51,779 nucleotides of DNA from Kiritimatiellia bacterium (GCA_007129405.1 SKVN01000054.1:1-51779); one strand, 5' to 3'. Counted from the first letter of the stretch, positions 45,778-51,779 are shown. Numbers and translations are program-made. The notes: generated by a model from the letters alone, not told the origin.

Positions 45778-47190
45778 TTAAGCCTCTACTTTGCCGATCA
45801 TGTAGAAATCATCTTCCGAGCGGCTGTCCACGCGTCCATCCACAATCATCTCGATACTATCTAGCGTCTCGCCAATATGTACATACTGCCCTTTACGACC
45901 CGTAAATGCCTCTGCAACAAACATGGGTTGCGTCAGAAAATACTGTAGCTTGCGGGCACGTTCATACAAGGTTCGATCCGCCTTGGAGAGCTCGTCGATA
46001 CCGATAACAGCCACAATACGGCGTAATTCATCGTACTTCGTAAAAATACGCAGTACCTCCTGGGACAAATCAAAGTGCCGCTGACCAACCACGGAAGCAT
46101 CCAAATTAGAGCAAGACGAAGCTAATGGATCGATACCAGGATATAACCCAAGCTGGGTTCGTTCACGCGACAAAACCATCACCGCATCCAGGTAGCTGAA
46201 AATGGCAACAACCGCAGGATCTGTCAAATCATCTGCCGGCACATAAACTGCTTCAAAAGCCGAAATGGAGCCTTTGATACGCTCATGCACATCCCCTACC
46301 TCCGAGCTCAATGTTGGCTGATAACCTGTTTCGGATGGCGTCCTGCCAAGCAGCGTGGAGATTTCTGCACCTGCCTGAACAAAACGGAAAACGTTATCCA
46401 TAAACAAAAGGACTTCCCGTCCGCTAGACTGCAAATATTCGGCTAACGTGATCCCCGTCTGTACAACATTAAAACGAGCACCAGGAGGTTCATCCATTTG
46501 GCCAAACGCCATCATAACCTTGTCAAGAATGCCAGCTTCATTAAATTCATGATATAGTTCATTACCCTCACGGATACGTTCACCGATTCCGGTAAACACA
46601 CAAGCTCCGTCATGCTCCTCGACAATATTATGAATCAACTCAGAGATTAAAACTGTTTTACCGCAACCGGCACCGCCGATAACCCCCGTCTTGCTGCCTT
46701 GCACAACCGGAAACAATAGATCGACAATCTTAATACCCGTTTCAACAATCTCAGGCCGCGAACTGGACAATCGCCCCACATTCATTTCAACCTTGGATAG
46801 ATCTTTATGAATAGGCACCTTGCGTTCTGTCTCAATAGGGCCCTTCCCATCTAACGGCTGCCCCATAACATTAATTATGCGTCCAAACAGCTCATCACCA
46901 ATCGGTATGTGCAAAGACTGCCCAGTGGCCTCCGCTTTGGCATTCCGTTGCAAATTCAATGTGGCCGAAAGAGCAACGCAACGCGCCAAATTTCCCTCAA
47001 TATGCTCAGCGACCAGCATCATCAACTCACGGCCATCATATGTTTTGGTCGTAACGACGTCGTGCATATCTGGCATGTGTTCAATCGCATCAAACTTAAC
47101 GTCCACCACAGGCCCTTGCACTGCGACCACGCGTCCAACCGTTTTTCGACCTTCAGCTACATGTTCCGTTTCCGTATTGCTCATATTCAT
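45778..47190 (-). CDS. atpD: F1 ATPase beta subunit
   Basis: GGAGCGKT Walker [20 protein letters not shown] and FMDNVFRF. The DELSEED loop reads DELSKAD. The second ATG (47184) may be the true start. Confidence 0.9.
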
Positions 47191-47197
47191 CCTCCTA

Positions 47198-48145
47198 TCA
47201 CACGGTCTCCAACTTTTCTAAAGCACGAGCAGCTGCAGACCGACCGCGCTGTACTTTACGCCGTTTGGTGCTCTTCGCCGAAAAAGATTCCCGCATCCCT
47301 TTGTCCACCAATTCATGTGTTGCTTTGGTCACTTTCTGGCGTACCTTCGAATGCTCTTTTTCTACTTTCTGCAAACTGCCCTCCAGATGCATAGCCCGTG
47401 CACCAAACTCCGCCAACTTACCATCTTCAAAAATTTCATATAGCCGCGAGGTAACCCAAATACCGGCAAGATACGTGACGATATCGTCGTACGAAGACTC
47501 AACAATGACCTTGCGGGCATCCTCCAAAAATTTTTTCATACCTTGAGAAGCGCGAGCTTCGACTTCTTCATGTCCGCGCTCAAACAAAATACCGCAGGGT
47601 AGCAAGTCAACAACCTCGATTTCCTGGCTGGAAAAAGACAATCCCCGTGGAGCGGCTACGACAATACGCCCCATTCTTCCTGCGCCGACCTCGCCGATCA
47701 AGTAATCCTTGATTACGACGGCCTGCTCGTAAATCGTTTCCTGACTAATCCCCTCGAAGAAATGAAATGGAACCCGCAAATCACTGATAAGCCCAGCCCC
47801 CTTCTCTCCAATTACTACATATGCAACCTTCTCTTGTGGAAGGCCAGCAACAACATCCGTCCCAGCTTGAATCACACCTCTGTTCAACCCCCCCATAAAT
47901 CCGGAATCAGAAGTCAAGATAACAACACCCGTGACATCCGAAGCAATTTTTACATATGGATTGACAACATCAACTAAATCTATAATGCGAAAAAACTCGC
48001 TGAAAGCTTCCATAAACTGCGCAAAACGCTGCTTCTGTTTCTCCAGCATATGATACTGGGAGCCGGCAACATTTTTTAATGTTTCGACCAGACTCAGCAA
48101 CTCCTTGTTAAACCGCAGTTCTTGTCTTAGCTCATTCAGCTGCAT
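47198..48145 (-). CDS. atpG: F1 ATPase gamma subunit, divergent, with a basic C-terminal extension
   Basis: [13 protein letters not shown] matches the itsDrGLcGgfN block. A C-terminal [12 protein letters not shown]...helix is present. The tail is [25 protein letters not shown]. Confidence 0.7.
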
Positions 48146-48187
48146 GCTCGAGGCCTTCCATACTACTAGCCTAGGAACTTCGCAGTA

Positions 48188-49498: not shown

Positions 49499-49501
49499 GC
49501 A

Positions 49502-50998
49502 TTACTCCTCGCTACGCACCGAAGCATCCATCTCTTGCGCATGCCAGTCTTTCAGAATTTGCTGAATCCCATCTTCGAGATCAGGCGTCAATTCCGTGGC
49601 ATCCTGCAGCCTACGCATAATCCCGTCGTGCAAATGCCTTGCAACCCCCCCGATTTGCGAGCAAAACGCACGCTGTGGCTCCCGCGAAACATGATCCAGG
49701 TGTCCTCCACGTAACGCATAGAGCAAAATCACGAGTTCGGCCTGCGAGCATAATACATGATGCCCTTGGCGAAAAACCTCACGAATAGCTTCACCACGTA
49801 AAATTACTTCTTTCGCTTCATCGGAAACCGAAGACAAGCGGCTTAATTGCAACATTTCGAGATAAGCAGCGTGGGCCGTCCGGATATCCGCGGTTAATGC
49901 TCGCAAAATGAGCGGCTGTGTACGCCCCCCGACAATTGACAGCGACATTTGCGGATCCACCGCAGGGCGAACACCCTCCGCAAAAATCGTATTACTCAAT
50001 ATCAATTGCCCATCACACATGGAAATAAGATTGGACGGGATATACCCAGTCAAGTCTCCCTGTTGCGTATCTGCTAACGAAAGAAAAGTCATCGAACCAG
50101 AGCCATGCCGCTCATTAAAACAACCAGCTTGTTCCATCAATTGCGTGTGCATATAGAAAATGTCACCAGGGTACGCCTCCCGACCCGGTGGGCGGTCCAA
50201 CAACAGCGAAAGTTGCCGATAAGCCCAAGCATGCTTTGTTAGATCATCCAGCACCACCAGGACATCTTTCCCCCGTTGCACAAACCAATCCCCTATTGCG
50301 GCGGCGGTAAATGGAGCAATATATTGCTCAGCTGCGGGTGCATTATCCGTTGCCCCCACGATGATGGTATAGGGTAACGCATGCCCTTCCACGAGGGTAG
50401 ACATCGCTTTTTCGAGCGCGGATACCGACTTGCCGACACAACAATAGATACAGACCACACCGCTGTCCTGTTGATTCAGAATGGCATCCAAGGCGATCGA
50501 ACTCTTGCCCGTCATTCGATCTCCAAGGATGAGTTGGCGTTGCCCCATACCAATGGGCGTTAAGGCGTCAACGATTTTCGTGCCCGTCAGAAGCATTCGG
50601 CGAATGGGCGCGCGATCCATCAGTGATGGTGCCTCACGAAATACCGGGATATTTTCCGTGTTCTTCAATTCACCATGCTCGTCAAAAGGCTGCCCCATGG
50701 CCGTCAGCATACGCCCTAGACAACCGTCCCCCGCAGGCACCGTAAAGGGTTCACTTTTTCCGCGCACTTCTTTGCCCATACGCAATTTGGACGTTGACCC
50801 AAGCGCAAGCGCACATACAGAATCCTGATCGAATTCCATCACCAACCCCAAGACATCATCACCCATGTCAACAATTTCGCCGGTCAAACAGCCCGGTAAA
50901 CCATCAATATGAACAACCGTGTCTTTAATGTCATGAATGGTACCCTTCTCTTCAAACTTTAGCTTGAAGAGCGGTATCTTTGAAGGTAACGAGCTCAT
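49502..50998 (-). CDS. atpA: F1 alpha-subunit paralogue 2 (divergent)
   Basis: GDRMTGKS Walker A, LVVLDDLTKHAWAYRQLSLLLDRPPGREAYPGDIFY, and PSNLISMCDGQL. The SVSRVGG segment reads SLSIVGG. Confidence 0.85.
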   Translation of the reverse strand: MSSLPSKIPLFKLKFEEKGTIHDIKDTVVHIDGLPGCLTGEIVDMGDDVLGLVMEFDQDSVCALALGSTSKLRMGKEVRGKSEPFTVPAGDGCLGRMLTAMGQPFDEHGELKNTENIPVFREAPSLMDRAPIRRMLLTGTKIVDALTPIGMGQRQLILGDRMTGKSSIALDAILNQQDSGVVCIYCCVGKSVSALEKAMSTLVEGHALPYTIIVGATDNAPAAEQYIAPFTAAAIGDWFVQRGKDVLVVLDDLTKHAWAYRQLSLLLDRPPGREAYPGDIFYMHTQLMEQAGCFNERHGSGSMTFLSLADTQQGDLTGYIPSNLISMCDGQLILSNTIFAEGVRPAVDPQMSLSIVGGRTQPLILRALTADIRTAHAAYLEMLQLSRLSSVSDEAKEVILRGEAIREVFRQGHHVLCSQAELVILLYALRGGHLDHVSREPQRAFCSQIGGVARHLHDGIMRRLQDATELTPDLEDGIQQILKDWHAQEMDASVRSEE

Positions 50999-51779
50999 TG
51001 AGAAACCCCTTTTGCATCTCGTCTGTCATACGTTTTTCTTCCACCAGCGAATTAACCAAGTCTGCCCGGCGTAGCCGTAAATGCTCCATGAAAAGCGCCA
51101 TAACAGGTCGCACCTGAGGTGGGGCAACATTTTCAAATAATCCATTCTGCAATGCGAACAAGAGCAACACCTGCTCCTCCATGGGGACAGGAGCATTCTC
51201 TTTCTGCTTTAACACTTCCTCCAGCACCTTACCTTTATTTAAGCGAGCTTCCAAGTCAGAAGAACCGCCCGCTTTAATGCGTGTCAACTTTTCTAGCTCA
51301 CGGTACCGCACATAATCAATCTTGAGCATGCTCGTGGGCTTTTTCATGGCTGGCCATTGTACCTTGCTACCAATACGTGATACGGATAGACCTAAATCGA
51401 CAGCAGGTTTGAAACCTTCGCCAAATAGCGTTGCGTTCAAAAAGATCTGCCCATCGGTCATCGAAATAATGTTGGAAGGGATATACCCTGCAAAATCACC
51501 TTGCTGCGTCTCCACAATCGGCAAATGCGTCATGGACCCCCCACCAAGTTCCGGCTTCATTTTCCCTGCACGCTCCACCAGCTGAGAGTGAATATAGAAA
51601 ATATCACCGGGATAGGCATCACGCCCGGGTGCGCGTTCCAACAACAATGAAATCTGGCGGTACGCCCAGGCATGCTTCGTGAAATCATCAAAAACAACGA
51701 GAACATTACGCCCCTCTTCATACATGAAATACTCGCCAATGCTTGCCGCCACGTATGGCACCAGGTATTGCTGCCCCAT
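50952..51779 (-). CDS. atpA: F1 alpha-subunit paralogue 1; the 5' end lies beyond the window edge
   Basis: LVVFDDFTKHAWAYRQISLLLERAPGRDAYPGDIFY, PSNIISMTDGQIFL and GLSVSRIG (Arg retained). The reading frame is open to base 51779. Confidence 0.85.
   Translation of the reverse strand: MGQQYLVPYVAASIGEYFMYEEGRNVLVVFDDFTKHAWAYRQISLLLERAPGRDAYPGDIFYIHSQLVERAGKMKPELGGGSMTHLPIVETQQGDFAGYIPSNIISMTDGQIFLNATLFGEGFKPAVDLGLSVSRIGSKVQWPAMKKPTSMLKIDYVRYRELEKLTRIKAGGSSDLEARLNKGKVLEEVLKQKENAPVPMEEQVLLLFALQNGLFENVAPPQVRPVMALFMEHLRLRRADLVNSLVEEKRMTDEMQKGFLNELVTFKDTALQAKV

Follow-up and report, generated by a model that had tools for sequence, protein, structure and literature searches.

A probable non-respiratory F-type ATPase encoded within a type II secretion-like gene cluster of Kiritimatiellia and related bacteria

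A stretch of 51,779 nt from a Kiritimatiellia bacterium (GCA_007129405.1, SKVN01000054.1:1-51779; hereafter the window, meaning the whole stretch of DNA that was analysed) carries between positions 45778 and 51779 seven genes for subunits of an F-type ATPase, all on the minus strand, as delimited by open reading frame (ORF) calling and by scans with Pfam and NCBIfam (Table 1). What is the function of this gene set? On balance, we lean towards a dedicated, non-respiratory, ATP-driven and F-type-derived ATPase that is not coupled to ions and that is built into a type II secretion-like (type IV filament) gene cluster. Such an ATPase probably powers the secretion machine mechanically rather than making ATP.

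Gene order and linkage to secretion genes

Transcribed in the order alpha1, alpha2, epsilon, c, b/delta, gamma, beta, the set fits neither F-type nor N-type operons. A first-pass annotation of this DNA had read the order in this way and judged it non-canonical, and on both counts we agree: the ORFs and their Pfam and NCBIfam matches reproduce the order, and the ORF coordinates return the reported intergenic gaps of 3, 11, 58, 42 and 7 nt exactly. The two alpha genes overlap by 47 nt (50952-50998), assuming that alpha2 starts at the ATG at 50998, and this overlap suggests translational coupling of both paralogs. In relatives, it measures 47 nt at locus L002 and 35 nt at L003, and there is none at L005.

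Unmentioned in the first-pass annotation was the gene that lies 38 nt 3' of beta, gspE, which is followed by gspF, gspG, pseudopilin genes, gspK, and gspL-like and gspM-like genes. Since these gsp genes come directly downstream of beta, the ATPase genes form the 5' part of a longer operon-like block. From the type II secretion system (T2SS), the block thereby holds GspE, F and G, minor pseudopilins, and K, L and M. GspG scores above its cutoff; for GspE and GspF, T2SS models are the best matches but remain below cutoff, and the matches of the K, L-like and M-like proteins are weak. A secretin GspD, a GspC and a prepilin peptidase were found neither in the operon nor in the rest of the window, and may lie elsewhere in the genome. 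Promoter and terminator scanning of 36000-51779 returned counts equal to those of shuffled sequence and is uninformative on operon boundaries.

Is this arrangement peculiar to one contig? Scanning one genome per GTDB species with a c-subunit alignment yielded 70 loci, which were annotated with hidden Markov models (HMMs) built from the first seven clusters. By submitter label, 17 loci belong to Victivallales, 13 to Verrucomicrobiota, 12 to Kiritimatiellia, 10 to Lentisphaerae and 7 to Omnitrophota; the others are labelled PVC (Planctomycetes, Verrucomicrobia, Chlamydiae) group (2), Planctomycetia (1) and Gemmatimonadales (1), or are unlabelled (7). The order alpha1-alpha2-epsilon-c-b/delta-gamma-beta recurs exactly in 47 of the 70, most others being truncated copies of it. 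The first-pass annotation had allowed that the order might prove to be the common one of a clade, as it now does, and the synteny comparison that it proposed reveals conserved order both in seven relatives and among the 70 species loci. These seven relatives, Kiritimatiellia, Lentisphaerae and Verrucomicrobia assemblies with identical order and with alpha2 identities from 87% down to 54%, share the longer arrangement X-alpha1-alpha2-epsilon-c-b/delta-gamma-beta-gspE-gspF-gspG, in which X stands for a conserved membrane protein described below. X precedes alpha1 in at least 50 of 53 testable loci. At the other end, 55 loci reach 1.5 kb or more past beta; a script placed gspE 3' of beta in 54 of them, and the missed one (L047) does carry gspE; the median beta-gspE gap is 21 nt. 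A type IV filament cluster is thus found within 10 kb of the ATPase genes, with gspE directly 3' of beta, in the window and in essentially all 55 loci.

Departures from the common order are few. Three Omnitrophota loci have X-epsilon-c-b/delta-alpha1-alpha2-gamma-beta, and relative to it the PVC order looks like one in which the alpha block moved to the front, an evolutionary counterpart to the first-pass remark that taking out a block would give back alpha-gamma-beta. A single alpha, of the alpha1 type, is present at L064, L067, L069 and L079, and also at L077 and L078, whose contigs end early. The pattern breaks at L015:12389-14902 (a Victivallis vadensis metagenome-assembled genome), where the HMMs detect no X and an ORF with eight transmembrane (TM) helices follows gspE near the contig end, and at L074:10990-13645, where the cluster ends after b/delta and unrelated genes come next; both could be rearrangements or assembly joins. 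In about one third of the loci, the window not among them, a Peptidase_MA_2 protein is inserted between gspF and gspG (L005:18352-19368, L007:18435-19247, L009:10479-11327 and about 20 other loci).

Comparing the window with L002, the ratio of non-synonymous to synonymous substitution rates (dN/dS) lies at 0.02-0.13 for alpha2, epsilon, c, b/delta, gamma, beta, GspE, GspF and GspG, with dS near saturation. Judged by these ratios, the compared genes are under strong purifying selection, which excludes the decaying duplicate that the first-pass annotation had considered.

Catalytic head, rotor and membrane components

NCBIfam equivalog cutoffs are reached only by beta and by full-length alpha1, the latter scored on the L002 ortholog (atpA, 518.8 bits; cutoff, 484.45), while alpha2 (460.9 bits in the same model), gamma, epsilon, c and b/delta all stay below theirs. 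Beta is 46% identical to E. coli beta, and its Walker A, GERxxEG catalytic and Walker B motifs are intact in 60 of 60 sequences. The two alphas, about 40% identical to each other, both keep Walker A. The arginine-finger position, embedded in the motif GLSVSRVGG of canonical alpha, holds Arg in 63/63 alpha1 sequences and Ile in 62/62 alpha2 sequences, and Ile again in all 120 nearest database homologs of alpha2. In a canonical F1Fo enzyme, every alpha gives an arginine finger; here, alpha1 is predicted to be able to supply one and alpha2, with its Ile, to be unable to do so. We considered a compensating arginine in alpha2 and discarded it, as the basic residue at +4 is common to alpha1. A head that mixes alpha1 and alpha2 would contain one or two impaired catalytic sites.

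In a neighbour-joining tree with only two canonical references, alpha1 and alpha2 form their own clade and are sister clades within it. Alpha2 is monophyletic in this tree, Omnitrophota copies included, and its branch is long. Since the single alphas group within the alpha1 clade, alpha2 was lost at least once.

Epsilon lacks the C-terminal helical domain, its median length in the family being 80 amino acids (aa) against 139 aa in E. coli. In the b/delta fusion, which by itself makes up the peripheral stalk, a TM helix at the N-terminus and a charged coiled coil are joined to the C-terminal half of delta/OSCP. In place of a full-length delta/OSCP there are only profile positions 101-164, fused to b, so that the delta N-domain, which in canonical F1Fo binds the N-terminal tail of alpha, is absent. 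Both alpha paralogs have N-termini 10-15 residues shorter than that of E. coli alpha, consistent with the missing delta N-domain.

The strongest sequence conservation in the set is seen in the c subunit, with 77-97% identity across phyla and 51 of 71 positions invariant in the first seven clusters. The c subunits of the seven Omnitrophota genomes are mostly 79-85% identical to that of the window, with an outlier of 62% at L079. The same Omnitrophota locus, which has a single alpha, carries two tandem c genes (L079:9992-10444), the second highly divergent but with Glu kept at the carboxylate position. Glu54 of the window protein aligns with E. coli Asp61, both lying 18 residues past the loop proline. 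Across the family, this position is variable: among 75 c subunits from the genome loci we count 66 Glu, 6 Met, 2 Gln and 1 Val (9/75 without Glu), and among the best 120 public protein clusters, a sample independent of the loci, 96 Glu, 23 Met and 1 Gln (24/120 without Glu). The carboxylate-less proteins occupy several separate branches, are about 85-90% identical to Glu-bearing c (outside this position, c identity does not drop below about 80%) and come from operons that are intact, beta included. The carboxylate in helix 2 that is invariant in canonical F1Fo is thus not invariant in this family, though the window has Glu54. An ion-driven or ion-pumping F-type c-ring cannot work without this carboxylate. 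As it is lost in 12-20% of members, ion binding is not required for the function of the family.

A dispensable carboxylate fits the missing a subunit. The first-pass annotation had seen no a gene between the ATPase genes, and this extends to the whole 51.8-kb window. Pfam searches of every polytopic ORF in the window recovered a ZIP transporter, an MnhB-like protein, NqrB, NqrD, NqrE, TatC and one 14-TM ORF without a match, none of them a-like. Searching every ORF at 79 loci by phmmer, with the E. coli a sequence as query, gave no match, and counting TM helices in unassigned ORFs within 10 kb at these loci gave GspF as the only recurrent polytopic protein. The window accordingly holds no homolog of the canonical F1Fo a subunit (PF00119), and no a gene was seen within 10 kb at the 79 loci.

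What lies upstream of alpha1? The first-pass annotation had proposed to look beyond base 51779, and in relatives this region holds X rather than a, c, b or delta. X is a protein of 400-450 aa with a signal peptide and one C-terminal TM helix; it has no Pfam or NCBIfam match, its database homologs are all labelled hypothetical, and a profile search found X-like modules in 931 clusters at 50% identity. An AlphaFold2 model (predicted local distance difference test score, 93.5) consists of two repeats of a beta-sandwich plus a three-helix bundle, followed by the TM helix, and a Foldseek search of this model against the PDB gave no match below E = 0.01. Strong conservation marks its TM motif, KTTWxIIYIILGFLAxxSLLFFLRW. 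Where the genes follow the Omnitrophota order, X occupies the slot that a has in canonical operons. A role as a substitute through a membrane arginine was rejected, the conserved Arg lying at the cytoplasmic end of the TM helix and not mid-membrane opposite Glu54, as an a-Arg210-like residue would. A position inside the lumen of the c-ring, like that of Ac45/Voa1 in V-ATPases, is unlikely, since some homologs bear a cytoplasmic GGDEF domain after the TM helix. Such fusions of X to a GGDEF (diguanylate cyclase) domain occur in some Omnitrophota (L067:7887-9779, L069:7896-9779 and L078:1-894). Among the X homologs P0288, P0292, P0301, P0304 and P0306 are fusions of this kind and one 2,029-aa protein in which the X module lies close to the C-terminus.

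The gene immediately before X, on the same strand, encodes a giant LamG/Ig-like (Kre9_KNH) protein in 29 of the 42 loci that could be assessed, those of Omnitrophota among them; these giants are homologous to one another, and their visible part exceeds 1,700-2,400 aa before it is cut by the locus edge (for instance L005:1-6583, L007:1-7170 and L069:2-7291); the other 13 loci have different genes at this position. The system may carry the giant protein as cargo or have it as its working end.

Table 1. Genes of the ATPase and secretion block in the window.
Feature	Position	Strand	Evidence and remarks
alpha1, C-terminal 275 aa; gene runs beyond window end	50952-51779	-	Pfam/NCBIfam; arginine finger kept (GLSVSRIGS)
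alpha2, 498 aa	49502-50998	-	Walker A GDRMTGKS kept; finger Arg replaced by Ile (SLSIVGG)
epsilon, 91 aa, N-terminal beta-sandwich only	49223-49498	-	PF02823 only
c subunit, 71-aa hairpin, loop GRNPSAAPK, Glu54	48996-49211	-	Pfam
b-delta fusion, 249 aa	48188-48937	-	OSCP profile positions 101-164; weak ATP-synt_B match
gamma, 315 aa, divergent	47198-48145	-	PF00231 79.9 bits; NCBIfam 56.6 bits vs 194 cutoff
beta, 470 aa, complete catalytic set	45778-47190	-	atpD 551 bits, above 463 cutoff
GspE-type secretion ATPase, MshEN-type N-domain	44099-45739	-	best NCBIfam match type_II_gspE, 561 bits
GspF inner-membrane platform protein	42807-44009	-	GspF model best match, 349 bits
GspG major pseudopilin	42298-42711	-	TIGR01710 126.9 bits, above 88.85 cutoff
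minor pseudopilins, two	41911-42288 and 41342-41914	-	weak N_methyl, T2SSK and T2SSK_1st matches, taken together with the GspK-like protein
GspK-like protein	40386-41345	-	weak matches, as in the row above
GspL-like PilM/PilN fusion	38882-40360	-	PilM_2, PilN
GspM-like protein	38328-38885	-	GspM model 31.6 bits, below cutoff
MORN-repeat protein, 441 aa, last co-directional gene of block	37000-38325	-	system membership uncertain

Elsewhere in the window, NqrB, NqrC, NqrD, NqrE and NqrF-like genes, which belong to a Na+-translocating NADH:quinone oxidoreductase, occupy 32019-36099 (+), with no nqrA directly upstream. Given these Nqr genes, a sodium or proton cycle is probably at work in the organism, for which a real ATP synthase would be needed elsewhere. 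Further content, at 3303-5902 (+), 6002-6745 (-), 9280-12864 (+) and 29017-31825 (-), comprises an MnhB-like antiporter piece beside the 14-TM ORF without a family match, the ZIP transporter, a pyruvate:ferredoxin oxidoreductase, and TatC, OmpA/Pal-like and TolB-like genes. These other genes fit an anaerobic Gram-negative heterotroph.

Possible mechanism and alternative explanations

How might such an ATPase work? The head would hydrolyse ATP and thereby turn or strain the gamma-epsilon-c-ring assembly against the b-delta stalk, with alpha1 and alpha2 mixing to give a head with one or two crippled sites. Its output would be mechanical or conformational work, not ion translocation, because an a subunit is missing and the carboxylate is dispensable in many lineages. 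Via the inner membrane, this work would reach the periplasmic protein X and/or the GspF/L/M platform, and it would help in pseudopilus dynamics or in handling the giant LamG/Ig surface protein. A more specific version is possible but tentative: after type III/flagellar export, mycoplasma gliding and the MIB-MIP system, the locus might be one more case in which an envelope machine has independently recruited a rotary ATPase, and the first in which the c-ring was kept. The ring would then serve as mechanical rotor, X would replace a, torque would drive or gate the pseudopilus or the export of the giant protein, and the asymmetric alpha1/alpha2 pair would set the stepping.

Several points weigh against a mechanical, secretion-dedicated ATPase. 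Glu54 is kept in 80-88% of members, the window included, so ion binding may still matter in most lineages, and a dedicated or shared a subunit may lie outside the window and loci that were searched. The TM helix of b/delta is poorly conserved. The X-GGDEF fusions suggest that X may be a signalling protein and not a mechanical element. The link between ATPase and secretion is drawn from gene order, and the secretion system already has an ATPase of its own, GspE, which leaves the need for a second motor unexplained.

Could the genes instead encode an ion-translocating F1Fo, either the housekeeping enzyme or a second pump, with a encoded elsewhere and with secretion neighbours that are coincidental or co-regulated? 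Split atp operons do occur in some bacteria, beta and alpha1 score above the equivalog cutoffs of NCBIfam atpD and atpA, the window c has Glu54 at the canonical position together with an R-N-P loop, and the search for a was confined to the window and loci. Yet no a gene lies within 10 kb at 79 loci even though c, b/delta and all F1 genes stay together, and in several separate lineages, 12-20% of members in all, the carboxylate is gone with everything else conserved. An alpha2 without arginine finger, the missing delta N-domain and epsilon C-domain, and gspE linkage across phyla in essentially all 55 testable loci are likewise hard to reconcile with a pump, and in an Omnitrophota study the probably corresponding clade is reported apart from the 'respiratory' alpha clade (PMC10066038). 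We therefore consider an ion pump unlikely. The retention of an impaired alpha2 in most lineages and the hints at signalling from the X-GGDEF fusions and the MshEN-type N-domain of GspE would also suit a non-rotary device, in which the c-ring and b/delta anchor a regulatory or assembly ATPase (a nucleotide-sensing switch or a chaperone), loosely like FliH/FliI/FliJ. FliH is regarded as b-like plus delta-like, the same layout as in the b-delta fusion, and the MshEN-type N-domain binds cyclic di-GMP in some relatives. However, gamma, epsilon and the highly conserved c are all kept, making up a complete rotor, and all catalytic residues of beta persist in 60/60 sequences; moreover, it is Sec or Tat that takes type II substrates across the inner membrane, leaving an export chaperone without an obvious client. 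A non-rotary role thus appears rather improbable to us.

A different partner is conceivable as well. The ATPase could be a non-respiratory part of a machine that also includes X and the giant protein and that serves, for instance, adhesion to surfaces or motility, with the secretion genes being mere neighbours. The giant LamG/Ig protein upstream in 29/42 loci and a database protein in which an X module is joined to a giant protein of this type (P0306) speak for this, as does the attachment or motility role proposed for Omnitrophota loci by Seymour et al. (PMC10066038). Against such independence, gspE follows beta in essentially all 55 loci at a median distance of 21 nt, and the giant protein is not universal, other genes replacing it in 13/42 loci; we regard this option as quite doubtful. 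Finally, the first-pass annotation had envisaged a canonical operon with an inserted partial second set (alpha2-epsilon-c-b/delta), or two interleaved sets that share gamma and beta, possibly a decaying duplicate. Deleting that block does leave alpha-gamma-beta, as it had read; its further step, a second set, fails, as relatives show one rearranged set. Epsilon, c, b/delta, gamma and beta are each present as a single copy, the alphas are ancient paralogs, and the same order recurs in 47/70 species loci. In addition, the single-alpha relatives and the epsilon-c-b/delta-alpha1-alpha2-gamma-beta order are those of one set rearranged, the gene upstream of alpha1 is X and not a, c, b or delta, and dN/dS is 0.02-0.13. 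By these comparative data the inserted-set model is refuted, and we give it next to no credence.

Comparison with known systems

With the canonical atpIBEFHAGDC operon, the window shares homologous F1 subunits, c and the b/delta stalk. It differs in its second, fingerless alpha, in the lack of a, of the delta N-domain and of the epsilon C-domain, and in lying in a secretion operon. The N-ATPase (atpDCQRBEFAG) resembles the window in having no separate delta and a b of about 250 aa with a b-plus-delta-like layout, and its b model, TIGR03321, is the best NCBIfam match of the b/delta protein, albeit at 41 bits and far below cutoff. N-ATPases, however, have a, AtpQ, AtpR and a sodium-type c, and their gene order is another; the 'exception' models of this group (TIGR0330x/0332x) score far below cutoff on window proteins (41 vs 225, 463-473 vs 750, 498 vs 752 and 21 vs 282). 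FliH-FliI-FliJ is a likeness of a different kind, namely a module derived from a rotary ATPase and recruited to a protein export machine. That module has a single ATPase forming homohexamers, lacks both a c-ring and an alpha/beta heteromer, and belongs to another secretion system; on window proteins, FliI/SctN models reach 170-190 bits as compared to cutoffs of about 600.

The mycoplasma F1-like ATPases of Type 2 (G1, gliding) and Type 3 (F1-like X0, MIB-MIP) have alpha/beta/gamma/epsilon heads in which ATP hydrolysis serves a non-bioenergetic job at the envelope. Type 2/3 enzymes pass force to extracytoplasmic proteins, and the Type 3 ATPase is required for the MIB-MIP antibody-cleavage system (PMC12994834). 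One protein of their cluster is analogous to X: its signal peptide is followed by a large extracytoplasmic portion, and TM helices lie at the C-terminus (PMC12994834). Unlike the window, mycoplasma clusters have neither c nor b/delta but a 12-TM protein and a small cytoplasmic protein, carry one alpha, and are confined to Mollicutes. The window has c and b/delta and no 12-TM protein, and its proteins stay below the MMOB1660/1670 and MSC_0619/0618 cutoffs, the scores in the four mycoplasma NCBIfam models being 365-411 vs 600, 433 vs 850, 265-290 vs 520 and 405 vs 570. The alphas are nearer to canonical ones, with 461-519 bits in atpA versus 265-411 bits in the mycoplasma models (all below cutoff).

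In a full-text literature search, only this mycoplasma work and a remark on Omnitrophota turned up as precedents. The remark is by Seymour et al. (2023, Nat Microbiol), who describe a 'non-respiratory' or 'symbiotic' F-type ATPase beside type-4a pilus clusters, present in 56/111 Velamenicoccia and, on 57/66 contigs, within 10 kb of the pilus cluster; its alpha grouped with mycoplasma Type 2/3 ATPases, a role in host attachment or motility was suggested, and giant LamG-domain ORFs were noted in Omnitrophota as well (PMC10066038). Like the window, these loci have an F-type homolog that is distinct from the respiratory enzyme and co-located with a type IV filament cluster. The seven Omnitrophota genomes in our set carry the same family, its genes being followed by gspE/F/G. 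We infer that the window family and the Omnitrophota 'symbiotic' ATPase are of the same kind, with no accession shared between our loci and the Seymour supplements. The evidence offered in that paper is alpha/beta phylogeny and co-location, for Omnitrophota alone, under a type-4a pilus label and with a role in symbiosis (PMC10066038). Its text and supplements, as far as consulted, make no mention of a missing a, the c-ring, carboxylate losses, a fingerless alpha2, the b-delta fusion or X, nor of Kiritimatiellia, Lentisphaerae or a role outside symbiosis (PMC10066038). The window family, in turn, has its alpha pair moved to the front and is commonest in Kiritimatiellia, Victivallales, Lentisphaerae and Verrucomicrobiota.

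If our reading is true, F-type genes of these phyla, Omnitrophota too, are being mis-scored as respiratory ATP synthase; public annotations do label them F0F1 or H+-transporting subunits, and such mislabelling would distort metabolic reconstructions of these uncultured groups. The family would further constitute a natural experiment on the repurposing of rotary ATPases, with a c-ring without a, a dispensable carboxylate and a built-in dead finger, and a second, rotary motor may be at work in some type II secretion or type IV filament machines. The 'symbiosis' label of the Omnitrophota loci would be called into question by how abundant the family is in free-living degraders of polysaccharides. 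We place the locus, as a member from the PVC group, in a scarcely described class of F-type ATPases that are non-respiratory and linked to secretion or pili. Relative to the known systems, what appears to be new is the anatomy (no a, a c-ring with dispensable carboxylate, a fingerless alpha2, the b-delta fusion and X) and, likewise, the near-invariant linkage to gspE, the broad distribution over Kiritimatiellia, Lentisphaerae and Verrucomicrobiota, and the conserved giant neighbour.

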